A stretch of 64,000 nucleotides of DNA from Candidatus Bathyarchaeota archaeon (lineage in GTDB: Archaea; Thermoproteota; Bathyarchaeia; Bathyarchaeales; Bathyarchaeaceae): contig JAUWDY010000005.1 in NCBI GenBank assembly GCA_030608565.1, positions 5,359-69,358 on the forward strand, read 5' to 3'. The translations under genes and the position numbers were made by a program. A model generated the notes under the pieces. The model was not told where the DNA came from. It searched no databases and saw only the letters and a program-made list of their open reading frames with translations. Below, in pieces: positions 35,040-63,946 of this stretch. Numbering within the stretch: position 1 is the stretch's first letter; each line of letters starts with the position of its first letter.

Positions 35040-36749
35040 ATGCGCTGTCAACGATTTCTACTGACTCTGCTGCTTCTAACGTTGTTCTCAGCAACGCTCA
35101 TAGCATGGCTTATTGTTCCAGCTGCAGCAGACACCCTCCAAGTGCCGCATGAATACCCAACTATACAAGCCGCTGTGAACGCAGCTGGAACTGGAGACAT
35201 AATAGAAGTTGATGCTGGAACGTACCTTGAAAACGTCGTAGTAAACAAAACAGTAACCATAAAGGGCGACAGCGCCACGAGTACTGTCGTTGATGGCGGC
35301 GGCAACGATGTAGTCTTCAACATACAGGAAGATAATGTGGAATTATGTGATTTGACAATTCGTAACGGGGGAAGCTACAGCGGCGTCACCATTTACTATC
35401 CTTTCAACGGTTTGACAATCTGCAATACCCGAATTATAGATAATGTTGTTGGCGTCGTCGTATCCGAGGCAGACGGCAATGTAATCGAAGACAATGTTTT
35501 CATCAACAATCAGATGTATGGCATCGATGTGACATATTCAATCAACACCATTATTAGAGATAACCAGATATCAGAAAGTGCTTATGGCATTGAAATTTCT
35601 GACACTTCAGGCAGTCAAGTTGTCAACAACACCATTTCTGATACTTCATATGGCGTATATGTGCCCTTCTCAAACAACAATAACATAAACACAAACACAC
35701 TCGCCAGCAATTCTTGGAACATCTACCTCACATACTCAAACAGTAACATCATAGAATACAACAATGTGTCAGGAGGCACAGTAGGCATCCAAGTCATGTA
35801 CTCAGAAGGCAACTCAGTCTTGAACAACACTGTAAGCAGCAGCTCTTACGGCATCTATCTAGGATATTGTGGTGCCAACACTGTCATCGGCAACACAGCA
35901 TCACTGAACGATTGGAGCATCGAACTCTACAGTTCCGCCGGAAGCACAATCATTGAAAACCTCATAAACGATAACACTTGGGGCGCCTGGGTAGCAGAAA
36001 ACTCTGATGGAAACAGTATCTACCACAACAACTTCATCAACAACGCGAAAGGAGCCTTCCAAGACCTGACCAGCTCAAACACTTGGAACACTCCCACAGC
36101 ACCTTACCAAGGAAACTACTGGGACGACTACAAAGGCACAGACACTGACGGCGACGGCACAGGCGACACCTACCTGCCCTGGGAAGGCGTAGACTGGCAC
36201 CCTTTAATGAAGCCTCTTGGAGTCTACCGTGACGTTGCTGTAATAAGTGTCACACCCTCCGACACTCAAGCATACGTTGGAGAAATGGTTAATATCACAG
36301 TCGTTGCAGAAAACCAGGGAACATCGGCAGAAACCTTCAATGTCACCGCAAAGTACGAAAACGTTACCCTCGGAATCTTTGGAACCATTGGAACACAGGA
36401 AGTTACAAACTTGGATCCTGAGCAAGACATTACTTTAACATTCATCTGGAATACCACAGACGTACAACCATGCGTTCACTATACAATCAAAGCTGAAGCA
36501 AGCCTTGTTCCTGATGAATTCGACACGTCGGATAACACTTACACCGACGGCACAGTGAAAATCAAAATGGAGGGAGACGTAAACGGCGACGGTTCCGTAG
36601 ATGTTATGGATCTATCTATAGTTTCTTTGGCTTACGGAAGCTTCGAGGGAGAACCAGACTATAATCCAGATGCGGACTTGAACAAAGACGGAGTCGTGGA
36701 CATGCGCGACCTAGCAACAGTAGCTATGAACCTAGGAAACACGTGCTAG
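35040..36749 (+). CDS. Secreted NosD-like parallel beta-helix protein + CARDB-like domain + C-terminal dockerin
   Basis: It has a signal peptide. Then come VPHEYPTIQAAVNAAGTGDIIEVDAGTYLENV and >10 PbH1 repeats, followed by GNYWDDYKGTDTDGDGTGDTYLPW. A CARDB-like module follows (RDVAVISVTPSDTQAYVGEMVNITVVAENQG). The dockerin is GDVNGDGSVDVMDL...DADLNKDGVVDMRDL (nt 36567-36746). Confidence 0.8.
   Translation: MRCQRFLLTLLLLTLFSATLIAWLIVPAAADTLQVPHEYPTIQAAVNAAGTGDIIEVDAGTYLENVVVNKTVTIKGDSATSTVVDGGGNDVVFNIQEDNVELCDLTIRNGGSYSGVTIYYPFNGLTICNTRIIDNVVGVVVSEADGNVIEDNVFINNQMYGIDVTYSINTIIRDNQISESAYGIEISDTSGSQVVNNTISDTSYGVYVPFSNNNNINTNTLASNSWNIYLTYSNSNIIEYNNVSGGTVGIQVMYSEGNSVLNNTVSSSSYGIYLGYCGANTVIGNTASLNDWSIELYSSAGSTIIENLINDNTWGAWVAENSDGNSIYHNNFINNAKGAFQDLTSSNTWNTPTAPYQGNYWDDYKGTDTDGDGTGDTYLPWEGVDWHPLMKPLGVYRDVAVISVTPSDTQAYVGEMVNITVVAENQGTSAETFNVTAKYENVTLGIFGTIGTQEVTNLDPEQDITLTFIWNTTDVQPCVHYTIKAEASLVPDEFDTSDNTYTDGTVKIKMEGDVNGDGSVDVMDLSIVSLAYGSFEGEPDYNPDADLNKDGVVDMRDLATVAMNLGNTC
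36649..36746 (+). repeat. ~98-nt near-identical dockerin 3' cassette, copy 1 (partner 40662..40759)
   Basis: The string gagaaccagactataatc[c/t]agatgcggacttgaacaa[a/g]gacggagtcgtggacatgcgcgacctagcaa... was read in both genes. Confidence 0.8.
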
Positions 36750-48203: not shown

Positions 48204-49457
48204 TCATGTAGCCCCAAGGTTCATAGCGACCAACACGAGGTCACGCATATCAACAACGCCATCAGCATTAATGTCGCACTCAGGATCATATTCTGGCTCA
48301 CCTTCAAAAGAGCCAAAAGCAATCGACACCAACGTGATGTCAACCACATTGACAACTCCATCACTGTTGACGTCTCCTACGAGGGAGGTCTTGTAGTAAA
48401 TGTCATAGTTTCCCCAATCTGGTTGGTCTGCCCTATCTGAGGTCCACACTACCCAGATTTTGACAAGATGTGTCTGAACCACTGAGGGCCATATGTCATC
48501 GTACTTGTCTGTGGTGAATTGAAAAATATCTAACCATGTAACACCATCGTCAGATGAGTGCATGTAGTAGATGTCATCGGTTGCTGTTTCCGCGGGTTCA
48601 CGTTGTGACCAGAAAATCCGTATTTTTCTATCTATAGTTTGGAGAACATATGGGTTTGAATCGATCCTTGGGCCACTTGTTATTTGGGTGTCCTCAGACC
48701 ATGAAGCACCAAAGTTAGAAGAGGTTTTATGGTATAAGTCGTAGTTGCCGGTTCTATCAGAGGCCCAGACAACCCAAATCGTATTATCGGACGTTTCTGT
48801 GAGAGAAGGCATTTTGTCGAGACTTGAATCCGTAGTGAGTCGTATGTCGTCAGACCAAGAGGTTTCGTTGTTGTAAGAAAGTTTTCGATACAAATCGTAG
48901 CCTCCACTTCTATCAGAGGCCCAGACAACCCAAATTGACTCATCAGACATCTGGTGGATAGCGGGTTTTAGGTCGTGACCAGAATAGAAAGTTAGTTGAG
49001 TATCGTTAGACCATGAAGCACCAAAGTTTGGGGAAGTCTTGTAGAAAATCTCGTAGTTGCCGGTTCTATCAGAGGCCCAAACAACCCAAATTGTGCCATC
49101 TGAAGCTTGACAAGCGGAAACCCCTGAATTAGCGGTGCCATTTATAGTTAACTGGGTTTCTTGTGACCAGCTAACTCCCCAATTAGTTGAAGTTACATAG
49201 AAGAGATTATAACTGTCAATTATTTTTCTGGTCCAGAAAATCCACAATGTTCCATTATGTGTCTCAATGATGGCTGGAATTCCATCGAAATCCACGTAAG
49301 TGGTTAATCTAACTTCATCATCTGACCATGTTACGGCGCCAACGAGAATTGTTGATACGATTAGTAACAATGTAAACAAAACTGATGCGATAAGTCTCAT
49401 TTTGAAATCTATTTCTACTTGAAAAAGCTGCCCCAGATTCTTCCTCCCTCCTCTCAA
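48204..49457 (-). CDS. Secreted BNR/Asp-box beta-propeller (sialidase-like fold) + C-terminal dockerin
   Basis: Asp-box-like repeats seen: STNWGVSWS, SPNFGASWS, SYNNETSWS, SSNFGASWS, SSDDGVTWL. IWVVWASDR strands recur. The dockerin is GDVNSDGVVNVVDI...CDINADGVVDMRDL (nt 48207-48380). Confidence 0.8.
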   Translation of the reverse strand: MRGGRKNLGQLFQVEIDFKMRLIASVLFTLLLIVSTILVGAVTWSDDEVRLTTYVDFDGIPAIIETHNGTLWIFWTRKIIDSYNLFYVTSTNWGVSWSQETQLTINGTANSGVSACQASDGTIWVVWASDRTGNYEIFYKTSPNFGASWSNDTQLTFYSGHDLKPAIHQMSDESIWVVWASDRSGGYDLYRKLSYNNETSWSDDIRLTTDSSLDKMPSLTETSDNTIWVVWASDRTGNYDLYHKTSSNFGASWSEDTQITSGPRIDSNPYVLQTIDRKIRIFWSQREPAETATDDIYYMHSSDDGVTWLDIFQFTTDKYDDIWPSVVQTHLVKIWVVWTSDRADQPDWGNYDIYYKTSLVGDVNSDGVVNVVDITLVSIAFGSFEGEPEYDPECDINADGVVDMRDLVLVAMNLGAT

Positions 49458-49629: not shown

Positions 49630-52578
49630 CTAGACTGGTTTGGATTTCTTCATTTTCACCAAGTAAACTGCCATTACTGCGATTACTATTGCCATTCCGA
49701 TAGTCGTGTAGTGAAAGATGCCGAAAGGCGCCTCCGGCAATTCTTGTATGAGAACTCCAATGGTTCGCGAATTGTCCACACTATAGGTTTCTCCAGGTAA
49801 AGGTTCGGCTAATGCTTTGACTGTGTAAATGCCGGCCGCTATATTTCGTGTATCCCACGTAAGGCTTATTGTCTCATTTACGCCTGTAGCTAAAGGCGCG
49901 GTGAGGGCTCGTGTAAGTCGAGTGTTGTTATAGTAAATTGTCACATTAAACGATTCTATTGCAGTGCCCTTGTTCAAGGCGATCACATTTATTGTTAGCA
50001 ATTCTCCTTTGGTTGCTTTGATTTTTGATACTTCAATGTCGAGAATAGCTATGTCTTGGATCGCCACGTTCACGCTCAGTTCAGGACTTTCAGCTGAAAG
50101 AGTTATTGAATCGCCTTTCCAAGAGGCTTTGATTTGGTAGATGCCAGATTCTGTTGGCATCCAATCAAAGGAGTATTGACCGTTTTGACTTGTTGAGACA
50201 TTTGCAAGAGACATCCAAGCGGTCTCCTCAACACGTGTATATTCAATGGCCACAATCACGCTAGCACGAGCAGGTGAAATGGACCCGCTGATAGTTGTGT
50301 TGAAGCCAAGGGGAACGGTTGTAGGCGAAGTGGATATGGCAATTGTGCTAGACGATTTTGGCACTATTACAGTCTCTGTTTTCGTATGGTCTAAGCCGTC
50401 GTCGTCAACTACCTTCAATTTCACAGCGTAGGTGCCAGGCATACTGTAAGCATGGGTTGCAGTCACGCCCGTGGCGTTTGCCTCATCACCAAAATCCCAT
50501 ATGTAATTCATGATCTCTCCTTCAGGGTCTCCTGGTGCATAGCTGGCTGACGCGTCAAAAGTGACTACTTCGCCCATGTTTGGCTCACTGGGCGAGAAAG
50601 TGAAAAAAGGTACAGGGAGCAACCGAATCAGAACAGTCAAGTTTTGCACGTTGTTCGTCGTATTAGCTTCGTCAACAACAGGGGGTACATATGCAGTTAC
50701 ATTGTATACACCTTCAACAGTGGAGTTCATTGCCCTAAACCAACTGAAGCTCAATGTTGTGGTGGCTCCGGCTGACAGTGTTACCGCAGTCTGATTTGCT
50801 ATAGGTTCGGTTGAATTGGCATAAACAAACACGTCGAAAGTGTCGTCTATATTGCCTTTGTTTTCAATCTCAACTTCTATGGTTGAAATTCTTCCTACAA
50901 CGATGTCGGTTGGACTGACTTCTATATTGGTAATTGCTATATCGTGTACAGGAACTTCGGTGGCGACTATTGGATCGCCAAAAAGTGTGTTGTCGACTGT
51001 GTTTTTCTCTTCGCTGGGACGAAAAACATGAGGTTTGATAAAATCGACTAAGTAGGCGTTTGCCCATATAGCGTAAGATCCTGGTGTAATGTCTCTTGGT
51101 TGAAGAGGGTTGATTCTCACTGGAAGCCAATCAACATAAATTGGCGTTGCGTTGACTCCAACCTGGATGTACCTTATACGAACCCTTGTTTTATTCATCA
51201 GGCTGGGCTCCCATAAGAGGCTGCCAGTTACGTCAACCCAGAAAAATGCATCGGTTACAGATGTGATGTTATAGACGATATCTTCGCTCCAAGTCTTTCC
51301 GTTGTAAACGCTCATGTTTAACTGATCATCTCCGCCTACATCAGTTTTCACTTCTATTCCAACTTCCACTTTGGATACGCAAGTCCACCCGATGGTGTCA
51401 AATTCGTAGCCTCTAAATTCTTGATATGTGTTATTGGTGCTGGTGTAGGTATAGAGATCATCTGAAGTGGAAGCGTTGAGCGGATAAGTCCACGCTCCAA
51501 CACCTTCTATAGAAGGACTCAACATTGTTTGATTGATATACGTATTCCAAAGGAACGTAAGGGTTTCATTGTCTCCGGGACTTAAACCGTCCACAAATTC
51601 AGTGTTTATCGGTATACTGTTGTAGAAGGCGGTCACGTTGAATGTGTCGTGGTGACTACCATTGTTCAGAACGGTCACATCGATTCTTGCTATTTCACCC
51701 GTGTGAACTTCGTCTGGGGTTTCTATCTCCAAGATGGCTATGTCATGGAATTTAACGTCCACCTCAAGCGAGACGGTGTTGTTTTCGCCATCGTCGTCAG
51801 TGATTGAAAGCGTCACATTGTATGAGGTAAGAAGAGTAGTAGATACGTTGTAAGCATGAGTTGTGATCACGTCCGTTCCATTTGTTCCATCATCAAAATC
51901 CCATACGTAACTGACTATGCTACCTCCATCAGGGTCGTAGCTGGCAGAGGCGTCAAAAGATATAGTTTCACCAACTATTGGACGCCCATAGGTATCAGGG
52001 GTAAAGGAGAAAGCAGCCACGGGTGCAGTTGTGTGGAAATCTCCGTCAGATGTGCTATGTGAAATTTCAACAACAGAAGAATCCAACAATATTGTGCCAT
52101 AGAGGTGTAGAGTGGATTCTCCTGCGGCTTTTACAGTGAAGGTTACGGTGAAAAGGTTTCCGCTGCCGCCTACTCCAGGATACTTGCCCAAAGTGACGCA
52201 GGCAACATAAACATAATCGTCAGCGATTGTGTATGAAAAGTATGTTCCCATCGGAGACGTAGTTTGATCTTTTATGAAAGGCCCTTCCTCAACATCAGTT
52301 GCTTCCAGAACGTTCTTATCGAATCCTACTCTAGCCTCATACGAGAAGAGATCTGTGACATCGGCGACGCCGATCTCAATGATAAAAGATTCAGTAGGGT
52401 TCGCCACATTGTTCGCAGGATCTACCGCAATTGTTGTGTCAGGAGAAGCTGATGCATGTAATGGAAAGGGTAAAATCACGCCTAGTGCAGCTACAAGTAC
52501 TATTGACAGTAAAAGAAAAGTTATGCTGAACCTTTTGGGATGATGTAACTTACGTAATCTCATAAGCCCTCTCTCCAA
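49630..52578 (-). CDS. 982-aa surface protein: cohesin + PKD + CARDB-like domains + unknown domain + PKD + Ig-like domains + PEF-CTERM-like tail
   Basis: The probable start is the ATG at 52563, after GGAGAGAGGG. The cohesin spans aa 48-183 (nt 52030-52437). PKD motifs are present (FDASASYDPDGGSIVSYVWDFDDGT; FDASASYAPGDPEGEIMNYIWDFGDE). Several CARDB-like modules occur (HDIAILEIE..., HDIAITNIE..., QDIAILDIE...). The tail is LPEAPFGIFHYTTIGMAIVIAVMAVYLVKMKKSKPV. I counted >20 N-x-S/T sequons by eye. Confidence 0.8.
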   Translation of the reverse strand: MERGLMRLRKLHHPKRFSITFLLLSIVLVAALGVILPFPLHASASPDTTIAVDPANNVANPTESFIIEIGVADVTDLFSYEARVGFDKNVLEATDVEEGPFIKDQTTSPMGTYFSYTIADDYVYVACVTLGKYPGVGGSGNLFTVTFTVKAAGESTLHLYGTILLDSSVVEISHSTSDGDFHTTAPVAAFSFTPDTYGRPIVGETISFDASASYDPDGGSIVSYVWDFDDGTNGTDVITTHAYNVSTTLLTSYNVTLSITDDDGENNTVSLEVDVKFHDIAILEIETPDEVHTGEIARIDVTVLNNGSHHDTFNVTAFYNSIPINTEFVDGLSPGDNETLTFLWNTYINQTMLSPSIEGVGAWTYPLNASTSDDLYTYTSTNNTYQEFRGYEFDTIGWTCVSKVEVGIEVKTDVGGDDQLNMSVYNGKTWSEDIVYNITSVTDAFFWVDVTGSLLWEPSLMNKTRVRIRYIQVGVNATPIYVDWLPVRINPLQPRDITPGSYAIWANAYLVDFIKPHVFRPSEEKNTVDNTLFGDPIVATEVPVHDIAITNIEVSPTDIVVGRISTIEVEIENKGNIDDTFDVFVYANSTEPIANQTAVTLSAGATTTLSFSWFRAMNSTVEGVYNVTAYVPPVVDEANTTNNVQNLTVLIRLLPVPFFTFSPSEPNMGEVVTFDASASYAPGDPEGEIMNYIWDFGDEANATGVTATHAYSMPGTYAVKLKVVDDDGLDHTKTETVIVPKSSSTIAISTSPTTVPLGFNTTISGSISPARASVIVAIEYTRVEETAWMSLANVSTSQNGQYSFDWMPTESGIYQIKASWKGDSITLSAESPELSVNVAIQDIAILDIEVSKIKATKGELLTINVIALNKGTAIESFNVTIYYNNTRLTRALTAPLATGVNETISLTWDTRNIAAGIYTVKALAEPLPGETYSVDNSRTIGVLIQELPEAPFGIFHYTTIGMAIVIAVMAVYLVKMKKSKPV

Positions 52579-52706: not shown

Positions 52707-54011
52707 TCAAGTGCGTTTTCTTCTCATGTAAAAGACTACGACGGCTAAGACTATGATTACGCCTATGGCGCCACCGATGACTAGGGTTGTTGGAAATGGT
52801 TCGGAAACCACGTTTACCGTAACAGTTCCGTCTTTGAACTCATTGTCGTCAGTGTCAACTTCGCCTTCGACTGTTGATGCAATAGCCTTTATCTGATAGT
52901 CTCCTTCAGCAACGCCTGTTGTGTCCCAGCTGAAAGTCAATGTTTCTTCGCTTCCAGGGCTCAAACCATCAACTTGCTGAGTGGCTATCGTGTTGGTGCC
53001 ATAGTATGTTGTTACGCCAAAGTCTTCTGATTCAGTGCCATCATTCCGAGCCGTTACATCAATGGAAACGGTTTCCCCAGCGTTAACTACTGCTTTCGAC
53101 ACTACAACGTTAGTTACTGCCACGTCATGAGCATAAGCGATACTCAGTGTTACCTCCTTTGTGCTGAAAAGTTCATACCAAATCCGCGGCATATCAGTAG
53201 TGTTGAATTGAGACTGCACAAGCGCAGACGCTGTGGCATCGTCGATGACAGTTAAAGAGGCAGTGAAAATTCCGCCAGTTGTGTAGGTATGTTCAGTAGT
53301 TGCCGTAGTGACCGAAGCATTTGTTCCATCTCCGAAATCCCAATAGTACTCAGCAATTTCCAATGGTGAGGTGGCACTGCTTGCTGAAGCGTTGAAGGTT
53401 GTCGGCTGATCTATTCCAGGAGGGTCAGGAGAATATGTGAAGTCAGCTACGGGTGGAATTAGAGTGTTGATAAAAAGACCGTTTTGGACAATGAGTTCAA
53501 GATCTTCAAAGTCGGGGGGAGGATTAGGGCTGTTCTGAGCTGTCAGATAAGTCAGATATATCTCTGTACCTGGGAGTGGATCGGTTTCAAACTTCAGGAG
53601 GGATTCTCCCTCAGCCACAACTTCAAACTCTACTGTCGCCAAAACTCCGCTGCCACTTATTCCTTGGTATTCACCGATTGTTGACCAGCCGAAAAGCGCT
53701 GAGGATTCTTCGATGTTCTGAACCCCAAATGTTCCATCAGGTTGCCACGCCAGGAAGTCTCCTTCTGTGACGTTGACAAAATTCAGTACGTCTGAATTGA
53801 AGGTTAGGTTTATCTGCCAAGCGTAGAGAAAATCGGCACCGGAAACAGTCACGTTGACTTTGAAGGATTCATCGACTGTTTTGTACACGATTGCTGGGTC
53901 AAAACTGATTTTTGCTGTAGCAGAAGAAGAGACAGTTTCAAGATTTATTAGAGTTGCTGCAAGAAGAAATGCCGAAAAGACAATTATGAGTAGCTTCTTT
54001 TTAAAGTTCAT
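52707..54011 (-). CDS. Surface protein: cohesin + PKD + CARDB-like domain + C-terminal TM/basic tail
   Basis: It has a signal peptide. The cohesin reads ADFLYAWQINLTFNSDVLNF ... GISGSGVLATVEFEVVAEGES. The PKD motif is FNASASSATSPLEIAEYYWDFGDGT. The CARDB-like module is HDVAVTNVVVSK...DVTARNDG. The tail is SEPFPTTLVIGGAIGVIIVLAVVVFYMRRKRT. Confidence 0.8.
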   Translation of the reverse strand: MNFKKKLLIIVFSAFLLAATLINLETVSSSATAKISFDPAIVYKTVDESFKVNVTVSGADFLYAWQINLTFNSDVLNFVNVTEGDFLAWQPDGTFGVQNIEESSALFGWSTIGEYQGISGSGVLATVEFEVVAEGESLLKFETDPLPGTEIYLTYLTAQNSPNPPPDFEDLELIVQNGLFINTLIPPVADFTYSPDPPGIDQPTTFNASASSATSPLEIAEYYWDFGDGTNASVTTATTEHTYTTGGIFTASLTVIDDATASALVQSQFNTTDMPRIWYELFSTKEVTLSIAYAHDVAVTNVVVSKAVVNAGETVSIDVTARNDGTESEDFGVTTYYGTNTIATQQVDGLSPGSEETLTFSWDTTGVAEGDYQIKAIASTVEGEVDTDDNEFKDGTVTVNVVSEPFPTTLVIGGAIGVIIVLAVVVFYMRRKRT

Positions 54012-54128: not shown

Positions 54129-55751
54129 TCAAGTTTCTCCAAGATAATAGGCTACTATTCTGAGGTCTCGCATATCTACGATTCCATCTTTGTTTATGTC
54201 TGCACTCAAGTTGTAGCCAGGTTCACCCTCAAAGGTGCCGTATGCCAGTGAGACTAGTGTTAAATCTACAACGTTAATCTGACCATCCTCATTTACGTCG
54301 CCTGCCAGAGAGGTTCTGCAGAAAGCTTCCCAGTCCTCACCGAGGGGGTTTGACGTCCACACAACCCAGATTTTCGTATCTATGGTTTGCATGACGGCAG
54401 GCCACGTTTCATCGTCGTTGCTTGCAGCAAAATCAATCTCTCCAGACCATGAAGCGCCATCGTCAGAAGAGGACTTGTAGCAGATATCAGTGTTCCCCAA
54501 TGGTGCCCCAGAAGTATAGAATATCATTATGTTCTCGTCTATGGTCTGGAGGATTGCTGGGTGTACGTTGGTGTTTGTGTTGTTAGTTAGTGTTGTGTCA
54601 GCAGACCATGTGAACCCATTATAAATCTTGTAGAAAATATCATAGGTTCCTGTCCTCATTGAAGTCCAGGCTACCCATATATCTCCGTCTTTCATTTGAC
54701 CTACGCTTGGACCCTTGTCATGGGCAGGATCTGTCGTCAATTGGTTCGTTGGGGCATCTGCCCATGATTCGCCCTCTGCTATTATCTTGTAGCAGATATT
54801 ATGACTGCCTGACACATAGCTTTGCCACACGATCATAATTGTGCCATTAGCCAGCTGAATGATCGCTGGGCGCAAGTCATCGACATTATTATCAGTTAGC
54901 GGAAAATCTTTAGACCATGTTACTCCATTGTCATGCGAGGCTTTATAGTAGATATCATAATCCAAGGAAGGTGAAGAAGGCGAAGAAGCGGTCACGTGCG
55001 AGGTTTTGCTGGTCTGACTGGTTCCTTCAGTGACTACAATCTCCAAGTAGACGTCCACGATATGTATTGTATGGTCGCCTTTTCCCATTACAGTTAGAGT
55101 GTAATTTCCAGGTGTGGCTGTGGAATTCACTGTCACCATCAAGGTTGAGTTGGCTGTTCCATTGATTGGTGGCGTGACCTGAGTTGGAATGAGGGTTGTG
55201 CTTACGTTCGCTGGTTCAGGCGGCACAATCGAGAGGGTCACAGGATCGCTAAAATTATGTACTGAAGTCACAGTTATTGTTGAGTTGTCAGACCCCCCTT
55301 GTGGGATAGTCAAATTCTGAGGCAACGCGTCCATAATGAAGTTTGGGGTCGGAGGTGGAGGTGGTGGTTGCCTGCTTGAAGTCCATACAACCCATATTGT
55401 GCCGTTTTGAGCTTGCATAATTGATGGGTTTTGGTCGTGACCATCACAAAAATTATCTGTTAAGTTCATCGCTTCAGACCATGTACTACCTTGATCACTC
55501 GTGATATTGTAGTACAACGTAAGGTTACTATCGATCTCCTTTGACCAAACAAGCCACACTCTTAAGTCTTCTGTTTGTGCAAGTGTGGGAAAACTGTCCG
55601 CAATCAAGTTTGATGTGAGTTGTTTGGTGTTTGCAGACCATGATATGGCCTGCACTTGCATGAAAATTGAGGATGCAACGACTAGAATAAGGAAAGCGCA
55701 TGTGACGTTGATTGAGCGTTCACGACGCATTTTGATTATGTCTCCTGTCAT
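54129..55751 (-). CDS. Secreted BNR/Asp-box beta-propeller with an inserted Ig-like domain + C-terminal dockerin
   Basis: Asp-boxes seen: TSDQGSTWS, SHDNGVTWS, SSDDGASWS. A PPPPPPTP linker leads into a ~110-aa Ig-like insert. The dockerin is GDVNEDGQINVVDL...ADINKDGIVDMRDL (nt 54132-54305). Confidence 0.8.
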   Translation of the reverse strand: MTGDIIKMRRERSINVTCAFLILVVASSIFMQVQAISWSANTKQLTSNLIADSFPTLAQTEDLRVWLVWSKEIDSNLTLYYNITSDQGSTWSEAMNLTDNFCDGHDQNPSIMQAQNGTIWVVWTSSRQPPPPPPTPNFIMDALPQNLTIPQGGSDNSTITVTSVHNFSDPVTLSIVPPEPANVSTTLIPTQVTPPINGTANSTLMVTVNSTATPGNYTLTVMGKGDHTIHIVDVYLEIVVTEGTSQTSKTSHVTASSPSSPSLDYDIYYKASHDNGVTWSKDFPLTDNNVDDLRPAIIQLANGTIMIVWQSYVSGSHNICYKIIAEGESWADAPTNQLTTDPAHDKGPSVGQMKDGDIWVAWTSMRTGTYDIFYKIYNGFTWSADTTLTNNTNTNVHPAILQTIDENIMIFYTSGAPLGNTDICYKSSSDDGASWSGEIDFAASNDDETWPAVMQTIDTKIWVVWTSNPLGEDWEAFCRTSLAGDVNEDGQINVVDLTLVSLAYGTFEGEPGYNLSADINKDGIVDMRDLRIVAYYLGET

Positions 55752-55829: not shown

Positions 55830-57224
55830 TTAAGGTACAATCCAGAAGTGCATTGTCTTCTGGGTTGATCCCCAAGAGTTCCATTTGAAGCCTTCGCTAG
55901 TGTATTCGATGGTTGCTGTGAGTTCGTATGTGCCGATGTGGTCTTCGCCTGAAAGCCATGTGACAGGGTCCAACTCAAGCTCCATGCCTGGGTTAACCAC
56001 GAATTCAGGTGGAGTAACAGGCGTTATAGCTGCAAACTCAACCTTCAATCGCACGCTGTCTATCTGCATAACATCAGGTGCGTCACCGTGGTAGTTGTAG
56101 ACGAGCATCTCAATATCGTTGAGGTCTGCTTCATTAGCTAGGTTTGGTTCTTGTTGTAGGACGCTTTCGCCGTCGATCCACCTAGTTCCGTACCAACCCC
56201 AGTCGGTAGTTCCCCAGCTGGATCCCCACCATGCAAACGCGGGCAGACCGTAAAGGTCAATGTCCACGTTCTCGGTGAAGCCATTTGGGAATCGCGAGTA
56301 GGTTTCTACCCATATGTTTGCGATCTCTTTGCCTCCAAGAGTAATATCTTCGAAGCCGAATAGAGATGCCCACTGGGCGTTAGCGTCGCCTTCAATGTAG
56401 TTGCCGTCGGGTTCTCCGAACAGGTTGGTTGGATCACCGTTGAATTCATAGTACCATTCGTTGAACTCGTTAACGTATAGGTATTCGAATGGTAGTGGTT
56501 CTCCAAGGCCACCGCCGGAGTAGGTTTGTCCAGCGTATATTCGGATGGTCCTGCTGTCTTCCAGTCGGGTTATGTCATAGCGTACCCTAACAGTTAGGGG
56601 AATGTCACCTTCGTTTATTACCTTGGCTTGGATTGGGAACACTGTTCCCGCTTTAACCTTGCGACCTTCAGGCATGTTTGCCCTGATCAGCCGTGCGGTT
56701 GGGCCTTGGTAGAAGGCGTCGGAAGTCTTGTGTGGCAGATAGTTGCCCTCTGGGTCCAACATAATGGTGTCCATCAGTGTTACTGGGCTTTCTCCAGATT
56801 CCACGACGAACAACTTGAATGTTGCCAGTATTCCGCTGCCAGATGCACCTACTCTTGGTGGGGTGCTCATCCTCATTATGACAACGGTGAATGTTCCTTC
56901 GAAAGAGTCAGTTGTGTATGTGAAGTAGGTCAGATGTGATCCACCATCATTCATGAAGCTTCCTTCTAGAATGTTGGATGCTGTTAGCACGGACACATAT
57001 GGCTGAACCTTCACAGTGAACTGAACTGCCCAAAGGTTTTCAGCATTGTCTATATTGACGGACATAGCGAATTCGTCGCCAGCGTGACCTTCCAGTTTAT
57101 CTGGCGTAATAGATATGGTGGTTGCGGGCGCTGCAGTCGTTGGGTTGATGCCAACCATCATGACGGTGAGCATCATTGCAATCAAGGATAGCAATAATAT
57201 GTTTTTTCCTCTCACTCTAATCAC
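55830..57224 (-). CDS. Secreted cohesin + uncharacterised ~300-aa C-terminal region
   Basis: It has a signal peptide. The cohesin reads AENLWAVQFTVKVQPYVSVL ... GASGSGILATFKLFVVESGES. The C-terminal region is Trp-rich and ends KTMHFWIVP (compare KTFSFAVVP in 47241..48137). The gene starts 9 nt after the stop of the binding-protein gene. Confidence 0.7.
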   Translation of the reverse strand: MIRVRGKNILLLSLIAMMLTVMMVGINPTTAAPATTISITPDKLEGHAGDEFAMSVNIDNAENLWAVQFTVKVQPYVSVLTASNILEGSFMNDGGSHLTYFTYTTDSFEGTFTVVIMRMSTPPRVGASGSGILATFKLFVVESGESPVTLMDTIMLDPEGNYLPHKTSDAFYQGPTARLIRANMPEGRKVKAGTVFPIQAKVINEGDIPLTVRVRYDITRLEDSRTIRIYAGQTYSGGGLGEPLPFEYLYVNEFNEWYYEFNGDPTNLFGEPDGNYIEGDANAQWASLFGFEDITLGGKEIANIWVETYSRFPNGFTENVDIDLYGLPAFAWWGSSWGTTDWGWYGTRWIDGESVLQQEPNLANEADLNDIEMLVYNYHGDAPDVMQIDSVRLKVEFAAITPVTPPEFVVNPGMELELDPVTWLSGEDHIGTYELTATIEYTSEGFKWNSWGSTQKTMHFWIVP

Positions 57225-57233
57225 CTCAATATT

Positions 57234-59372
57234 TTATGGGTATTCCTTTTGCCAGAGCAAGTGGTAGGCTGCGATGTATATGTCTCTCATGTCTACGATC
57301 TCGTCTGAGTTAAAGTCTGCAGCAGCGTTGTAGCAGGGTTTTATTATAGTACATCCGTAAGCGAAGCTCACGAAAGTCAAGTCGATGACGTTTACGACAC
57401 CGCTTTTGTCGTAGTCACCAACTTCCCAGAACATATCTGCCTTTAGAGTCGCTATAGCAGCAGTTGACATGAAGTAGTTCTCGTTCTTCCACATGTCGTC
57501 ATACATGTTCACTGCATCATAGAATTGGAATATCCATGGACCTGTTCCGAACAGGTTTGTTGGAGTTGGGTTTGGACCATCTGTGTAGCCAGATGCAACA
57601 TTGTAAGCCTCAGTTGGATCATAGTCTAGAACAGCCGCTCTCTCAAGTGGATCACTTGAGCTGCCAAACCGATTCCAAATGTGTTCTGGAATCAATGGGG
57701 CGAGACCAGAATAGTCATAGAATAGACCGATACCCTCTTCACTAGCTTCTATAGTGACATGTGTGTTATTTGTTACGACAACATCATCAAGTGTCATCCA
57801 TGTTGCGGCATACCTAGGCACTTGGTAGTCTCTGAGGAATTCTAAACAGAATTCGACATCGTAAGCCGTGAACGGCTTGCCGTCTTGCCAATCAACATCG
57901 TTCCTTAGAGTGAAATCTATATCCATTCCACCCACGGTCGACGTGATTGTCCAGTCTGACGCGATCCATGAAATGTCATTATGGTTGTACGGGTTCACAG
58001 CCGTCAAACCATCCTGGGTCTGTCCTATAATGTTCCATTCGTATACTGTGGTAGCATAGCATGGGTTGAGTGAGCCTGGATCGTCACCGTTAATGTAGAC
58101 TACGACATTCTTTGTGCCTTCTGTCCTTTCATATCCTGCTTCCCAATTGAGATTGAAGAACGTCCAACTGTTGTCTGAGCCGTAACCAGGCGATTTAACG
58201 ATGCCTTCAAGGTGTTCAGCGAACACGTTGAAATATGACCTGGAATACAGCAACATGTATGCCAACGCGAAGTTATCTGCGTTAGGATACGTGACTTCGT
58301 CATCAGTATACAGCATCTCTTGGACTTCTTTGGCGGCAGTTTCTATGTCGTCCGTGTCAAGGCTGAACTTAACTGTCTCAACGAGTGCATCGATGGCTGC
58401 ATCATGGAGTCCAGTAGCACCATCTGCTCCGGATAAGATCATGCAGTCTTGGCTTGAGTGAAGGAACGAATACAGTTGGTCAGGTATCCTTCCCATACCG
58501 TAGAAGACCATGTAAGCGTCGAAGTGGGCATAGTCGTACACATCTTCTAGGTATTCGCTGAAGTCTCGGCCAAGGCTTTCGAAGCCGCTGTTACCGTTGT
58601 CTGCAGTTGCTGCCAGTCCTATATTGCGTAGGTCTGCAACAAACTCTTGACCATGCTGGTAGGATGTTGGTGCAACTCCTATGAGTGGCGTCCATATCTC
58701 CAAGTGTGGTATAGGGGAGTTGTCGGGGGACCTCCAGAAGTCGTCATCCGTGACGGTTCCGCTGCTGTCGTCGTCAACAAAGGTGTAGCCAGCGTCCATG
58801 AGTATACCGCATGACGTGCCGTCACCGGCTGTAGACGTGAATGGGTTGCCTGGGTTATACGGATGCTCTGGAACACCAGGGTTGTAGTATTTGCTTTGAG
58901 CAGGTGGAACAAGTGAACGAACAGGTGTTACAATGTAACCATAGATTGGAGGGATAATCCCCAATTGGTCATAGCAATGGATAAGCGCATGTCTAAATTC
59001 CATATCCTGAAGAGGCCAATAAGTTATGTCAGTCCTCCAAGTATAGTTTGCCGCTATGGCCTCAGCGCTTTCACCTCGAATAGTGGCTGTGTCCCTGATG
59101 TTGTAGGCGATGAAGCCCATGTGAAAACCTAGGTCTTCTGTTACAGTCATACCATCGGCATCTTGCTTTTCAATATCTCCTGTTCTTATCTGGTCAGGTG
59201 AAAAGTCAGCTATACCAGTCTGCATTGCAATCAAAGCTGCGTCAGGTGATCTAATCACCATGTGACGTAGGATATCCATCTCCGGACCATTTTGCGAAAA
59301 GGTCGTTGAAACCATCAGAATCGGCGCAAGCATTGAAACTAGCATTATAGCTAATATAACTTTAGATTTCAA
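57234..59372 (-). CDS. ABC transporter substrate-binding protein, family 5 (OppA/DppA-like), apparently circularly permuted, with a C-terminal dockerin
   Basis: It has a signal peptide without a lipobox Cys. SBP_bac_5-type motifs seen: INGDDPGSLNP...DGLTAVNP...WIASDWTI...DFTLRNDVDWQDGKPFTAYDVEF, FGTGPWIF, and PLQDMEFRHALIHCYDQ. The C-terminus is a dockerin-like module (next feature). Confidence 0.8.
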   Translation of the reverse strand: MKSKVILAIMLVSMLAPILMVSTTFSQNGPEMDILRHMVIRSPDAALIAMQTGIADFSPDQIRTGDIEKQDADGMTVTEDLGFHMGFIAYNIRDTATIRGESAEAIAANYTWRTDITYWPLQDMEFRHALIHCYDQLGIIPPIYGYIVTPVRSLVPPAQSKYYNPGVPEHPYNPGNPFTSTAGDGTSCGILMDAGYTFVDDDSSGTVTDDDFWRSPDNSPIPHLEIWTPLIGVAPTSYQHGQEFVADLRNIGLAATADNGNSGFESLGRDFSEYLEDVYDYAHFDAYMVFYGMGRIPDQLYSFLHSSQDCMILSGADGATGLHDAAIDALVETVKFSLDTDDIETAAKEVQEMLYTDDEVTYPNADNFALAYMLLYSRSYFNVFAEHLEGIVKSPGYGSDNSWTFFNLNWEAGYERTEGTKNVVVYINGDDPGSLNPCYATTVYEWNIIGQTQDGLTAVNPYNHNDISWIASDWTITSTVGGMDIDFTLRNDVDWQDGKPFTAYDVEFCLEFLRDYQVPRYAATWMTLDDVVVTNNTHVTIEASEEGIGLFYDYSGLAPLIPEHIWNRFGSSSDPLERAAVLDYDPTEAYNVASGYTDGPNPTPTNLFGTGPWIFQFYDAVNMYDDMWKNENYFMSTAAIATLKADMFWEVGDYDKSGVVNVIDLTFVSFAYGCTIIKPCYNAAADFNSDEIVDMRDIYIAAYHLLWQKEYP
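57237..57422 (-). other. Divergent two-segment dockerin module at the C-terminus of the ABC binding protein
   Basis: The module reads GDYDKSGVVNVIDLTFVSFAYG ... ADFNSDEIVDMRDIYIAAYHL. Both 12-residue loops keep D/N/S at positions 1, 3, 5, 9 and 12, and each is followed by a helix. The same layout is seen in the six other dockerins in the window. Confidence 0.65.
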
Positions 59373-59548
59373 GTTCTCTCTTTTCTCCTTTCTTTTTTAT
59401 CAGCAGAGAAAATATACGGATGTCGCACAATATAAAAGTTGCCCACTGACACATATATAACAAAGATATAGAAATTTGTTCTACAAAGAAGTAGATAACT
59501 TTAAATGGTCTTGAAGAAAACGACTTATGGAGTAAAGGATGTGAGCAG
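59373..59548. promoter_or_regulatory. Divergent promoter region between the dockerin-SBP gene and the permease/ATPase genes
   Basis: This is a 176-bp A/T-rich spacer. It contains TATA-like boxes (cacaATATAAAAGttg near 59430, acaTATATAAca near 59455, aacTTTAAATgg near 59500). SD-like boxes face both ways (AAGGAG for the minus gene, GGAGTAAAGGATG for the plus gene). The transcription start sites are not determinable from sequence. Confidence 0.4.
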
Positions 59549-60547
59549 ATGCGAGAGTATCTACTCAAGAGGATTATAATCTCGATTTTTATCTTGTGGG
59601 TGGTTGCCACCTTAAATTTTGTCATATTCCAAGTCGTTTCTCCACTCAGTCCAGAAGACACATACGCTCCTTTGAATCTTGATATCCCACCAGAAACGCT
59701 AGAACTTATAAGAGAGCTATACGGCCTCAACGAGCCCATGCACATGCGATACATCAAATACATAAAAAACATGTTCACCTTCGACTTTGGAATATCATTC
59801 GTGAGCAGAAAACCAGTAGTCGTAGAAATGTCACAAAGGCTTCCGGCGACAGTGTTGCTTCTCGGTTCTTCAATGGTTGCAACTATTCTCATAGGCACTC
59901 CTATAGGAATACTTGCTGCTTCAAAGAGAGGATCTAAGAAAGATATAGTCACAATCGGCGCTGGTCTCTTCACGTGGGGCGTCCCAGTCTTCTTCATCCA
60001 ACTCTTGTTCATGCTGTTCTTTTCTTACTACTGGATGAAAATCTTCGGCGTCCCGCTTTTCCCTGTTAGGGGACTCTACAGCATTCCCCCGCTTGCCAAT
60101 CCTTTGGCATTTATGGCTGACGTAGCGTGGCATATAGGATTACCGCTTATAACCCTAGTAGTTGGTGGTTTCGGAGCTTGGGCGTTATACACAAGAAACA
60201 TCTTGTTGGACGCTCTTACACAAGACTATATAATCACAGCTAGGGCAAAAGGACTAAGTGAAAGAACCGTACTATACAGACATGCGTTCAGAAGCACACT
60301 TCCACCAATAGTGACCATAATAGCCCTCTCGATTCCTGGAATAATCACGGGAGCAATGATAACAGAATGGATATTCACACTGCCGGGAATCGGAAGGTGG
60401 TACCTAGACGCCTTAACAGGCTCGGATTATCCGGTACTTCAAGCAGTGCTCTTCATGTTCGCCATTCTAACAATACTCTGCAATCTAATCGCAGACCTTT
60501 TATATGGAATCCTAGACCCTCGAATACGAGTAGGCGTGAGAAGATAA
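59549..60547 (+). CDS. Opp/Dpp-type ABC transporter permease (OppB/DppB-like)
   Basis: The 332-aa product has 6 hydrophobic helices. It has the binding-protein-dependent transport signature region ITARAKGLSERTVLYRHAFRSTLPPIV and a C-terminal DLLYGILDPRIR. Confidence 0.9.
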   Translation: MREYLLKRIIISIFILWVVATLNFVIFQVVSPLSPEDTYAPLNLDIPPETLELIRELYGLNEPMHMRYIKYIKNMFTFDFGISFVSRKPVVVEMSQRLPATVLLLGSSMVATILIGTPIGILAASKRGSKKDIVTIGAGLFTWGVPVFFIQLLFMLFFSYYWMKIFGVPLFPVRGLYSIPPLANPLAFMADVAWHIGLPLITLVVGGFGAWALYTRNILLDALTQDYIITARAKGLSERTVLYRHAFRSTLPPIVTIIALSIPGIITGAMITEWIFTLPGIGRWYLDALTGSDYPVLQAVLFMFAILTILCNLIADLLYGILDPRIRVGVRR

Positions 60548-60560
60548 GGAGAAAGCAAAA

Positions 60561-61985
60561 ATGGCTTCAATCTTTTCTAAAGACAAAAGAATCATATACA
60601 CAAGAAGAATCCGAGAATTCTGGTTTGAATTCAAAAGCAAAAAAATTGGTCTGGCAGGTCTTGCACTAATCATAATCTACGTCCTAGTAGCAGTCTTTGC
60701 TCCTTTTCTAACACCGTACAATCCGATCACCCAACCTCGACTGGCTCAAGCCACTGCAATGCCTGAATGGATAACCGTTTTCCCAGGATACCAAGACTAT
60801 GGAAAAACCCAAAGAGAAATCCTCAACTGGAACGTGGAAAAGGGCTCCGAATTTGTTGAGGGATGGGGAAGCTCTGCTGAAATACAATACGAAGCAGGAA
60901 AACCTCAACTAGTTCAAGTAGAGTTAAGCAGCCAATTTTCGTATATGCAAATGGCTCCAAACGAGTTTTTCACACTATTCAGGTATGAAGTAGCAAACAT
61001 CAAAGACATAGAGTGTTCCATTGCACTATCACTTATCCCTCCTGAAGCAAACAGTTCTTACATCTTTTGGAGATCAGAAACACTGACTGCCGAAAAATCA
61101 CAAGATGTCACCGTAGACTCCAAGGACCCCATATTCATAAAGAGACTAGGATTTAAACTTCAAGAAAACCTTGGCAACATAATCTTCTCCCAAAAAGGAG
61201 ACTACACATTTATTCTGCTAATACAATTCAGGCCATTGTCAAATGATGCAATGGCTAAAGTGGTTATAAAAAACAGCCAAATCGTCCTATTGGGCCGCGT
61301 ACATGGAATTCTAGGGACAGACTACCTAGCAAAGGACATCTGGTCACACCTTGTTTGGGGTAGTCGAATTTCCTTGTCAATAGGCTTACTTGCAGCCCTC
61401 GTGGGAACCGTTATAGGTATATTCGTGGGAGTCACATCCGGATATCTCGGCGGATTGACAGACGAGGTACTTATGCGCACAGTTGATATACTCTTGTGCC
61501 TACCACTACTACCACTATTGCTAGCACTTGTCCACCTCTACGGAAGAAATGTGTACTACATAGTTCTGTTCATAGGAATCTTTGGTTGGCAAGGTCTAGC
61601 CCGAGTAATAAGGTCTCAGACCTTATCCATCAGGGAAACACCATACATCGAATCAGCTAGAGCCTCGGGCGCTAGCGGCTTCTACATAATGCAAAAACAC
61701 ATAGTCCCAAACATAATCCCAGTAGCCTTTGCATCCATGATCCTCGCAGTCCCAAGTGCCATTCTTTTCGAGGCGGCATTAAGCTTTCTTGGCTTTGGTG
61801 ATCCTAGGGTAGTAACATGGGGAATGATGCTTCAACACGCCTTTGGATTTGGAGGATTCAGTCAACTAGCTTGGTGGTGGATAGTACCTCCTGGACTAGC
61901 CATCATAGGCTTATGCATGGCCTTCGTATTCATTGGACACGCCTTCGACGAGATTGTAAATCCAAGGCTGAGGAGAAGACGATAA
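60561..61985 (+). CDS. Opp/Dpp-type ABC transporter permease (OppC/DppC-like) with a ~180-aa extracytoplasmic insertion after TM1
   Basis: TM1 spans aa ~30-50. A non-hydrophobic stretch then runs to aa ~245. The canonical core follows: GILGTDYLAKDIWSHLVWGSRISL ... YIESARASGASGFYIMQKHIVPNI ... DEIVNPRLRRR. Confidence 0.85.
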   Translation: MASIFSKDKRIIYTRRIREFWFEFKSKKIGLAGLALIIIYVLVAVFAPFLTPYNPITQPRLAQATAMPEWITVFPGYQDYGKTQREILNWNVEKGSEFVEGWGSSAEIQYEAGKPQLVQVELSSQFSYMQMAPNEFFTLFRYEVANIKDIECSIALSLIPPEANSSYIFWRSETLTAEKSQDVTVDSKDPIFIKRLGFKLQENLGNIIFSQKGDYTFILLIQFRPLSNDAMAKVVIKNSQIVLLGRVHGILGTDYLAKDIWSHLVWGSRISLSIGLLAALVGTVIGIFVGVTSGYLGGLTDEVLMRTVDILLCLPLLPLLLALVHLYGRNVYYIVLFIGIFGWQGLARVIRSQTLSIRETPYIESARASGASGFYIMQKHIVPNIIPVAFASMILAVPSAILFEAALSFLGFGDPRVVTWGMMLQHAFGFGGFSQLAWWWIVPPGLAIIGLCMAFVFIGHAFDEIVNPRLRRRR

Positions 61986-62954
61986 ATGGCATTGCTAGAT
62001 GTTGAGAACCTCAAAATGTATTACGGGACATTGAGAGGACAAGTCAGAGCAGTTGATGACGTAAGCTTTCAAGTAGCCTCAAAAGAATCCCTAGGACTAG
62101 CAGGCGAATCTGGATGTGGAAAAACAAGTGTAGCTCTCACTATACTTAGGTTGTTACCATGGAACGCCAAAATAGTAGGTGGAAGCATAAAGCTAGCAGG
62201 CGAAGACATCGTAAAGATGAGTGAATCGCAGCTCCAGAAGGAAATCCGTTGGAAAAGAATCTCCATGATATTCCAAGGCGCTATGAACGCACTGCACCCA
62301 ACATATACCGTAGGCGCCCAAATAACAGAGGCCATACTCACGCATGAAAAAGTTGGAAAAGAAGAAGCTTTGGAGAGAGCCACCAAGCTTATAGAACTCG
62401 TTGGAATGGAACCCTCAAGAGTCAAGCGATATCCCCACGAACTCAGCGGAGGAATGAAACAACGAGCCGTAACTGCTATGGCCTTAGCTTGTAATCCAGA
62501 TCTAGTTATAGCAGACGAACCCACCACCGCATTAGACGTAATTGTGCAAGCACAAGTATTGGAAGTCATGAAAGACCTACGAAACCGACTCGGCATATCT
62601 ATGTTAGTAATTTCACATGACCTAGCACTAATTGCGGAAACCTGCAACAAGATTGCAATCATGTATGCAGGCAAGATAATAGAAAACGGAGATGTAACCT
62701 ACATCTTCAAAGAACCACTGCACCCTTATACGCAAAAACTAATCACGGCTTTTCCAAGTGTCATAGGACCCAGAACCGAACTTTCATCTATCCATGGATT
62801 TCCACCAGACCTGTTAAAGCCTCCACCTGGATGCAGATTTCACCCAAGATGCGAACATGCAATGGAAATCTGCCGCAAGAAAGAACCACCACTCATAGAA
62901 GTTGGTAACAATAGATATGTAGCATGTCACCTTCATGAAGGGAGAAAAACTTGA
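61986..62954 (+). CDS. Opp/Dpp-type ABC transporter ATP-binding protein (OppD/DppD-like)
   Basis: Motifs seen: Walker A GESGCGKTS, signature LSGGMKQR, Walker B LVIADEPTTALD, H-loop ISHDL. The C-terminal oligopeptide-ABC motif is PPPGCRFHPRC. Confidence 0.92.
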   Translation: MALLDVENLKMYYGTLRGQVRAVDDVSFQVASKESLGLAGESGCGKTSVALTILRLLPWNAKIVGGSIKLAGEDIVKMSESQLQKEIRWKRISMIFQGAMNALHPTYTVGAQITEAILTHEKVGKEEALERATKLIELVGMEPSRVKRYPHELSGGMKQRAVTAMALACNPDLVIADEPTTALDVIVQAQVLEVMKDLRNRLGISMLVISHDLALIAETCNKIAIMYAGKIIENGDVTYIFKEPLHPYTQKLITAFPSVIGPRTELSSIHGFPPDLLKPPPGCRFHPRCEHAMEICRKKEPPLIEVGNNRYVACHLHEGRKT

Positions 62955-63946
62955 AAGACATAACAATCGAAACCCGCGATTTAGTAAAACATTTCCCAAT
63001 AAAAATGGGTTTCTTTCAAACCCTACGTACAAAAGAAGCACCAAAAGTCCACGCAGTAGATGGAGTAAGCCTACACATAAAGAAGGGGGAAATCCTCGGA
63101 CTTGTAGGCGAAAGCGGCTGCGGAAAAACCACCACTGGAAAGGTACTAGTTGGACTGCTTGAACCCACTGGAGGGCAAGTGTTCTTTGGAGGTACTGACT
63201 TGGCAAGCCTTCCTGATAAAGAAATGCGGAAGCTACGACGAAAAATACAAATAATATTCCAAGATCCGTACGAATCCTTAGACCCAAGAATGAGTGTCTA
63301 CGACATTGTTGCAGAGCCTGTGCGAATCCAAAAAGTCGTGAAAAGTGAAAGAGAAGTAGGCGAGAAAGTGAGAAAAGCCCTGGAAGAGTTTGACCTAGTT
63401 CCCCCAGAAGAATACATGTACAGATTTCCTCATGAACTAAGCGGCGGCCAAAGACAACGAGTATCCATAGCCAGATCTTTCGTTCTAGATCCCGAGTTTC
63501 TCGTAGCCGACGAACCCGTGTCAATGCTCGATGCTTCCATCAGAAGTGAAGTCTTAAAGCTATTGCTAACAATGCAGAAGAAACTACACACATCATTTCT
63601 CTACATAACCCATGACATAGCGTTAGCTCGACACATGTGCAATCGAATTGCAGTCATGTACCTAGGCAAAGTTGTCGAAAAAGGACTCACTGAAGACGTG
63701 ATACACAAGCCACTTCACCCATACACAGATGCCCTAATCGCTGCAGTGCCAGTTCCAGACCCAACAGCAAGACGCATCAGAGTTACTATACAAGGAGAGG
63801 TCCCCAGCGCAATCAATCCCCCGCCTGGATGCAGATTTAGTACACGATGCCCCCACGTCATGGAAATCTGCCGCAAGAAAGAACCACCACTCATAGAAGT
63901 TGCTGAAAACAGACAAGTAGCGTGCCATCTACACACAAAAAAATAG
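62951..63946 (+). CDS. Opp/Dpp-type ABC transporter ATP-binding protein (OppF/DppF-like)
   Basis: Motifs seen: Walker A GESGCGKTT, signature LSGGQRQR, Walker B LVADEPVSMLD, H-loop ITHDI. The C-terminal motif is PPPGCRFSTRCP. It overlaps the upstream gene by 4 nt. Confidence 0.92.
   Translation: MKDITIETRDLVKHFPIKMGFFQTLRTKEAPKVHAVDGVSLHIKKGEILGLVGESGCGKTTTGKVLVGLLEPTGGQVFFGGTDLASLPDKEMRKLRRKIQIIFQDPYESLDPRMSVYDIVAEPVRIQKVVKSEREVGEKVRKALEEFDLVPPEEYMYRFPHELSGGQRQRVSIARSFVLDPEFLVADEPVSMLDASIRSEVLKLLLTMQKKLHTSFLYITHDIALARHMCNRIAVMYLGKVVEKGLTEDVIHKPLHPYTDALIAAVPVPDPTARRIRVTIQGEVPSAINPPPGCRFSTRCPHVMEICRKKEPPLIEVAENRQVACHLHTKK

Follow-up and report, generated by a model that had tools for sequence, protein, structure and literature searches.

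A dockerin-tagged, circularly permuted OppA/DppA-type solute-binding protein of Bathyarchaeota

Results

The gene and the parts of its protein

The gene described here lies in a 64,000-nucleotide stretch of a Candidatus Bathyarchaeota archaeon contig (JAUWDY010000005.1 of assembly GCA_030608565.1, forward-strand positions 5,359 to 69,358), which we call the window and whose numbering is used throughout. It occupies 57234..59372 of the minus strand in the list of open reading frames (ORFs), begins with a TTG start, ends with a stop codon at 57234-57236 and encodes a dockerin-tagged solute-binding protein (SBP) of 712 aa. The protein passes the threshold of the Pfam family SBP_bac_5 (PF00496) with 92.2 bits against a cut-off of 32.4, and it is a homologue of this family with a permuted topology. 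A protein 100% identical to it (P0001, from NCBI) is encoded on an 81.7-kb contig, where the start is set at an ATG nine codons downstream of the TTG.

The chain, encoded throughout on the minus strand, opens with a Sec-type signal peptide (residues 1-26, 59295..59372) made of MKSK, a hydrophobic core and TFSQ, and free of a lipobox cysteine; in the AlphaFold2 (AF2) model residues 2-20 form a helix with a low predicted local distance difference test score (pLDDT). Residues 27-421 (58110..59294) correspond to DppA precursor 234-535, the C-terminal ~60% of the canonical chain, and by Pfam, the family profile and the hhalign map contain the remainder of domain I, domain III and the C-terminal strand. 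At the end of this part a new linker (residues ~412-421, the EAGYERTEGTK region, 58110..58139) joins the old C-terminus to the old N-terminus. The canonical N-terminal ~40% follows as residues 422-634 (57471..58109, DppA 29-233), with the first strand of domain I, domain II and the GTGPW...NENYF motif, as placed by Pfam, the Protein Data Bank (PDB) matches and the residue map. A helical linker (residues 635-651, 57420..57470; helix 637-649 by DSSP on the AF2 model) leads from the SBP core to the dockerin module (residues 652-712, 57237..57419), which consists of two Ca-loop/helix repeats, DYDKSGVVNVIDL and DFNSDEIVDMRDI. Two further ORFs, 58201-58461 (plus strand, 86 aa, antisense to the SBP gene) and 59362-60012 (minus strand, 216 aa, antisense to oppB), are most likely spurious shadow ORFs.

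The canonical chain order is swapped

The initial annotation, which covered 57440-59290 (residues ~28-645), had read the motif order as reversed and the protein as a circular permutant. Every motif that it quoted is found at its residues in the ORF, and the SBP_bac_5 profile coordinates are swapped instead of collinear, positions 148-344 preceding positions 5-141 in the chain. When each piece is scanned alone, residues 27-415 match through residues 32-289 to positions 148-344 of the 368 in the profile (35.1 bits, E 1e-8, above the cut-off of 32.4), and residues 416-645 match through residues 469-634 to positions 5-141 (60.5 bits, E 2e-16). Re-joining the C-piece and the N-piece in silico in that order yields a single collinear stretch over 5-344 and raises the score from the native 92.2 to 104 bits.

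Solved structures give the same result. A family profile (A1) built from 40 sequences of 44-78% identity was used for the PDB search and matches canonical cluster-C structures at E ~1e-15; against E. coli DppA (8z1z_F) its residues 405-488 correspond to DppA 28-110, 568-623 to 189-243, and 29-161 to 236-356. NikZ, OppA and NikA show the same swapped order with the family profile and with the single sequence, for which query residues 425-515 align with OppA 24-110 and 608-643 with NikA 159-193. Hmmsearch totals on circular shifts of DppA and on doubled DppA were uninformative, because HMMER sums local stretches whatever their order, and the order-sensitive hhalign -glob was used in their place. 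With the family core aligned to each circular shift of mature DppA, the native order scores 72.6 over 300 columns; the score rises smoothly to 141-147 at mature cuts 190-210, where 467-477 of the 507 columns are aligned, and then falls again.

At the best cut, window residues G29-P30 pair with DppA K236-P237 and NENYF (630-634) pairs with DppA 229-233, while K421 meets the last residue of DppA, E535, and N422 meets mature residue 1 (K29); downstream of this last pair, window sequence VVVYINGDDPGSLNP is aligned with DppA TLVYCSEGSPEGFNP. Given this map, the permutation is exact, with zero loss or overlap at the cut. The junction had been proposed at nt 58110-58130, that is at residues 415-421, and the map puts the cut at 421/422; the break had been proposed where the canonical chain passes from FGTGP...YW into its second half, and it is observed just past GTGP...NxxYW (Pfam ~141-148, DppA precursor 233/234). 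The residue mapping likewise bears out the proposed shift of the chain termini and, with them, of the point at which the dockerin is attached. We conclude from these four independent tests that the chain of this cluster-C (SBP_bac_5, OppA/DppA/NikA-type) binding protein, which is very probably secreted, departs from the canonical order by an exact circular permutation.

The permutation is fixed in a large family

A word-indexed search recovered at least 120 clusters at 90% identity, mostly of ~700 aa, with 93-100% query cover and 40-78% identity, and an exhaustive search of 1.84 billion representatives recovered 99 at E<=1e-30 and 312 at E<=1e-10. Among the homologues fetched, 248 of 275 align as one collinear stretch across residues 390-445, down to 24% identity; the other 27 are fragments or collinear split matches, and neither the canonical order nor a duplication was seen in any of the 275. 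Eight of the most divergent members (24-34% identity), scanned singly against Pfam, each match in two stretches that carry the same swap with a breakpoint near profile position 145. The swapped order is thereby reproduced independently in all eight and is confirmed far beyond chance; since such divergent members keep both swap and breakpoint, the arrangement has a single and ancient origin. Conservation is strong along the entire protein in more than 150 clusters at 50% identity, and each piece contains many invariant residues.

All members with a named organism belong to Candidatus Bathyarchaeota. A scan of genome contigs, which was pattern-limited, returned mostly canonical SBPs of Pseudomonas and other bacteria in which only one half was matched, and just three full-length loci, all of them from Bathyarchaeota; a TFIIB gene beside one of the paralogues confirms an archaeal host.

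A contig misassembled at ~58.11-58.13 kb, with parts of two SBP genes joined by error, would produce a swapped order in this one sequence, and the initial annotation had allowed for such a chimera. It is excluded by the 248 independently assembled homologues from many metagenomes (24-78% identity; NCBI, JGI, ENA and Logan assemblies), which share order and breakpoint. Moreover, no break in composition occurs at the junction, the two pieces total exactly one SBP, and the junction is confidently modelled by AF2, so that an artefact of this kind has virtually no chance of being the explanation. The permutation is thus confirmed as genuine, ancient and fixed across a large Bathyarchaeota family.

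Some members carry additional domains. P0021 and P0044 (~1200 aa) are fused to an N-terminal PQQ/BamB-like beta-propeller, P0005, P0066, P0087 and P0079 to cohesin with or without dockerin modules, and P0120 to a PF01183 (glycosyl hydrolase family 25) domain. These fusion variants suggest that the permuted SBP also serves as a building block of larger surface proteins.

Predicted fold and binding site

The AF2 monomer model is a single confident fold (pLDDT 93.2, predicted template modelling score 0.89), and pLDDT blocks of 89-96 over residues 391-430 show that the junction too is modelled with confidence. Foldseek places only cluster-C SBPs among the top matches of the model (probability 1.0, E ~1e-14 to 1e-11). 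Their sequential alignments extend over only ~376-400 columns, with a target-normalised template modelling (TM) score of ~0.5, as expected where a sequential aligner meets a permutation. The same limited alignment to canonical SBPs (~380-400 columns) would fit a fusion of two fragments, the C-terminal half of one SBP copy and the N-terminal half of another, which fail to complete one another in the chain and either form domain-swapped dimers or persist as a decaying remnant. Against such a fusion stand the high scores of the monomer and its short, confident linker; the two pieces are exactly complementary, the re-joined sequence is a full-length collinear Pfam match, and the conservation of the full length, with invariant residues on both sides of the junction, extends over the more than 150 clusters. 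We therefore hold a fragment fusion to be very improbable and retain the complete, permuted SBP.

Domain I of DppA, which we take to be mature residues 1-33, 183-260 and 479-507, probably houses the new termini (mature 205/206) as well as the old, so that the connectivity of the hinge and its two crossings would be untouched.

Is the ligand a peptide? In DppA, D436 and R383 clamp the alpha-amino and carboxylate groups of the peptide termini (PMC12136057). In the permuted SBP, M293 (consensus L in the family) takes the place of D436, an assignment anchored by the pairing of P297-D298 with DppA P440-D441, and S219 takes that of R383, where the alignment is of low confidence; the clamping Asp and Arg conserved in the peptide subgroup are thus not found, which leaves the substrate uncertain. 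The segment of residues 285-298 (nt ~58479-58520), HFDAYMVFYGMGRIPD, is the counterpart of the canonical GW..D..DP motif. Across the family its D285, R295 and P297 vary little or not at all, whereas a hydrophobic residue stands where the canonical clamping Asp would be, and the segment may form an altered binding site. Oligosaccharide substrates occur in several Thermotoga and archaeal Opp-type systems. By this analogy, with the clamps unconserved and an insert of the cognate OppC weakly matching carbohydrate-binding modules, an oligosaccharide appears at least as likely a substrate as a peptide.

Leader, dockerin and surface retention

Leaders were compared in 118 complete homologues: a hydrophobic stretch is found in 104, K/R among the first 10 residues in 92 and a Cys in only 8, and AxA-like motifs (SYAQ, TFSQ) stand directly before the first core strand, a pattern that points to cleavage of the signal peptide. 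Neither a systematic lipobox cysteine in the leaders nor a C-terminal transmembrane or hydrophobic helix (0/118) was found in these members. The archaeal host has no outer membrane. With lipid and transmembrane anchors absent, no retention device other than the dockerin can be recognised.

In the window dockerin both DxDxxGxVxxxD-like repeats can be read from the sequence, the family profile matches solved dockerins (2y3n_B, E 1.8e-9; 4u3s_B, E 2.6e-7), and some homologues pass the Pfam dockerin cut-off (P0189, 26.3 bits). A family-specific hidden Markov model finds the dockerin in 163 of 168 complete-core members; in the remaining five the tail is dockerin-like but degenerate. The dockerin of the permuted SBP would be expected to bind a cohesin, for which the window offers four candidates: 55830-57224, 52707-54011, 49630-52578 and 40819-44874.

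Neighbouring genes

A complete set of oppBCDF genes (59549-63946) is divergent from the SBP gene, the genomic association of cluster-C SBPs, and the same arrangement is found at a second Bathyarchaeota locus, L002. The set, all on the plus strand, consists of an OppB/DppB-type permease (59549..60547; BPD_transp_1, 128.5 bits, and BPD_transp_1_N), an OppC/DppC-type permease (60561..61985; OppC_N and BPD_transp_1) and the ATPases OppD (61986-62954) and OppF (62951-63946), both with ABC_tran and oligo_HPY.

The OppC-type permease contains a beta-sandwich insert of ~170 aa (residues ~80-245) between its first transmembrane helix and the permease core, which is conserved, extracytoplasmic, all-beta and confidently predicted by AF2. 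Solved E. coli and M. tuberculosis DppC/OppC, to which the membrane part matches by Foldseek, lack the insert, and at least 120 clusters of homologues ~473-477 aa long contain it. Its best Foldseek matches are weak and fall on carbohydrate-binding modules (CBM28/61/4/27/29/11; E 2.5e-4 and weaker). The possibility that this ectodomain is the cohesin that receives the dockerin was considered and rejected, given these weak CBM-like beta-sandwich matches and the absence of cohesin from the top 50.

Downstream of the SBP gene, 55830..57224 (minus strand) encodes a secreted protein of 464 aa with an N-terminal cohesin-like domain (Cohesin, 21.2 bits, cut-off 24.1). Its orthologue in the second genome (L002:6125-7573, 55% identical) is likewise immediately downstream of the SBP, and the position of the BNR-dockerin gene beyond it is also kept there. 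The ~300-aa C-terminal region of the 464-aa protein is conserved, rich in Trp and Tyr, and without a Pfam match. As judged from sequence and gene order, this protein is a candidate for a dedicated docking partner of the SBP dockerin.

The stretch 35040-57224 is, on both strands, a dense cohesin-dockerin locus that looks like a non-cellulosomal surface assembly system. Dockerin-tagged proteins encoded in it are a NosD/beta-helix protein (35040-36749), an S8 subtilase with CARDB (38087-40765) and two BNR proteins (48204-49457 and 54129-55751). Its cohesin proteins include one of 1351 aa with ten InlB B-repeats and FIMAH (40819-44874) and two that combine cohesin, PKD and CARDB (49630-52578 and 52707-54011).

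Discussion

We consider the following picture of the permuted SBP very probable. After the Sec signal peptide the chain starts at DppA ~234, in the domain I strand that follows GTGP...NxxYW, runs through domain III to the canonical C-terminus, crosses the ~10-residue linker (412-421) to the canonical N-terminus (422), and passes through domain II to NENYF (DppA 229-233), a helix and the C-terminal dockerin. It is predicted to adopt the ordinary bilobed fold. It would act as an ordinary Venus-flytrap receptor that delivers to the adjacent OppBCDF-type importer, and it would be kept at the surface by binding of its dockerin to a cohesin protein, the product of the downstream cohesin-like gene or another cohesin of the window being the candidate.

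How did such a chain arise? A circular permutation classically arises when a gene is duplicated and the product is then truncated at its ends, and tandem SBP paralogues are common, which makes this origin plausible here: in a single ancient event in Bathyarchaeota, tandem SBP genes would have been fused or duplicated and the outer parts then lost, the most likely route. A possible relic of terminal duplication, in which DppA 236-243 aligned both to the start of the family N-terminus and to the segment after NENYF, was rejected, because residues 637-649 are a predicted helix leading to the dockerin and bear weak similarity to the N-terminal strand.

Several observations weigh against this picture, or against parts of it. 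The ordinary bilobed fold, though confidently modelled, is a prediction. Peptide binding is doubtful, neither DppA clamp, R383 or D436, being conserved. The window dockerin reaches 20.3 bits against a cut-off of 22.9 for Pfam Dockerin_1 (PF00404, type I dockerins), and the cohesin-like domain of the downstream protein is also sub-threshold. The homologue sample was fetched with a query that contains the dockerin, which may inflate the association of the two. No tandem-duplicated intermediate and no close relative in canonical order is present among the 275 fetched homologues. Finally, two paralogous permuted, dockerin-tagged SBPs (L003:3374-5512 and L004:4001-6103) are orphans, located away from genes of any ABC transporter; L004 and L002 belong to one metagenome-assembled genome, which shows that there are several copies per genome.

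These orphans and the multiplicity of paralogues bear on a different function, in which the permuted SBP has given up, or added to, its role as transporter receptor and works as a ligand-binding or targeting module of a cohesin-dockerin complex, like a cellulosomal CBM. The fusions to a PQQ beta-propeller, cohesin or PF01183 would suit this function, as would the unconserved peptide clamps and the wealth of dockerin-tagged enzymes and cohesin proteins in the window. Yet the window copy and its L002 orthologue divergently adjoin a complete oppBCDF set, the full bilobed core is conserved, and orphan SBP paralogues that use one translocator are common in canonical Opp/Dpp systems; DppA1-A5 of P. 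aeruginosa reportedly share a translocator in this way. We consider a role confined to, or extended to, targeting quite unlikely, and prefer a receptor of the OppBCDF-type importer.

Is the permutation an adaptation to tethering? The C-terminus may have been moved to avoid a clash between cohesin and permease or to orient the cleft, and would then be no neutral accident. Permutation and dockerin co-occur in 163 of 168 members, the tails of the other five are degenerate and dockerin-like, and other anchors are absent from the family; the authors who described the permuted glucose-binding protein TpMglB-2 speculated likewise on a link to tethering (PMC4990184). On the other hand, the bias of a sample drawn with a dockerin-containing query applies here as well. 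Canonical archaeal cluster-C SBPs, moreover, are known to carry C-terminal transmembrane tethers. Dockerin-tagged NikA/OppA-type SBPs have been described in ANME archaea with no mention of a permutation (PMC9012536). Both cases suggest that the canonical C-terminus can be tethered as it is, and we regard an adaptive origin of the permutation as possible, if doubtful.

A more specific form of this idea, which we offer tentatively and judge unlikely, is that the permutation co-evolved with the cohesin-dockerin tether in an uptake machine assembled at the cell surface, the SBP, free of lipid and transmembrane anchors, being held through its relocated C-terminus by a dedicated cohesin over OppBC with its CBM-like ectodomain, beside the dockerin-tagged hydrolases (S8 protease, BNR, beta-helix) of the locus. 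Were this true, the breakdown of extracellular polymers would be directly coupled to import. More generally, the coupling to a dockerin suggests a physical link of uptake to extracellular hydrolases, and it provides a testable model for how binding proteins are retained without a lipid anchor in abundant uncultured sediment archaea.

Known families describe these proteins poorly. NCBIfam equivalog models give at most 40 bits against cut-offs of ~400-1100 bits, and databases see partial or split SBP_bac_5 matches; this leaves at least ~300 clusters at 50% identity (E<=1e-10) poorly modelled, which a dedicated permuted profile would mend.

Comparison with known systems

The nearest known systems are the canonical cluster-C SBPs, E. 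coli DppA (1DPP/8Z1Z), OppA, NikA, C. jejuni NikZ (4OET) and T. maritima TM1223, to which the permuted SBP is homologous over its whole core. The fold class is alike (Foldseek probability 1.0), the core of ~610 aa is similar in size, and the neighbours are of the OppBCDF type. Unlike them, the permuted SBP is cut at DppA 233/234, has a ~10-residue linker and a C-terminal dockerin, does not conserve the clamps R383/D436, and is found in Bathyarchaeota only.

The structural classification of SBPs into clusters A-G assumes a fixed chain topology for each cluster. The one natural departure described is TpMglB-2 (Tp0684) of Treponema pallidum, a circularly permuted glucose-binding protein for which a 'Cluster Bc / Type Ic' was proposed (PMC4990184). 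Like the permuted SBP, it is a natural, family-wide permutation that keeps the bilobed fold, in an organism with tethered SBPs, and its authors raised the link to anchoring (PMC4990184). It differs in belonging to cluster B / type I, in its size (~400 aa), cut site, N-terminal lipid anchor and bacterial host, and the sequences are unrelated. All sequence and structure matches of the permuted SBP are to cluster C and none is MglB-like; it is an analogue of TpMglB-2, not a member of Cluster Bc. A second, independent and ancient natural permutation of an SBP, now in cluster C, means that the fold tolerates such rearrangement repeatedly.

Dockerin-tagged SBPs of the NikA/OppA and TroA types were noted in ANME archaea by Chadwick et al. 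2022 (PMC9012536). These share with the permuted SBP the archaeal Opp/Nik class and the dockerin, genomes rich in non-cellulosomal cohesin/dockerin proteins, and a presumed attachment to the surface (PMC9012536). They differ in that no permutation was reported and in that they belong to Halobacterota and not to Bathyarchaeota. Given these examples, the fusion of an SBP to a dockerin has precedents, and what may be novel is the permutation; for described permutations, a literature search of incomplete coverage found only TpMglB-2 and engineered sensors, and none in OppA/DppA-type (cluster-C) proteins.

The engineered circular permutants, biosensors built from maltose-, ribose- and glucose-binding proteins, show that a bilobed SBP tolerates moved termini when its native ends are linked. 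They are artificial, belong to other clusters and have not been fixed in evolution, unlike the permuted SBP, whose natural cut at DppA 233/234 and linker offer a ready design for permuted cluster-C sensors. As a result in structural evolution the finding is solid and moderately surprising: the bathyarchaeal protein adds a new chain topology to a well-known family and does not represent a new type of system.

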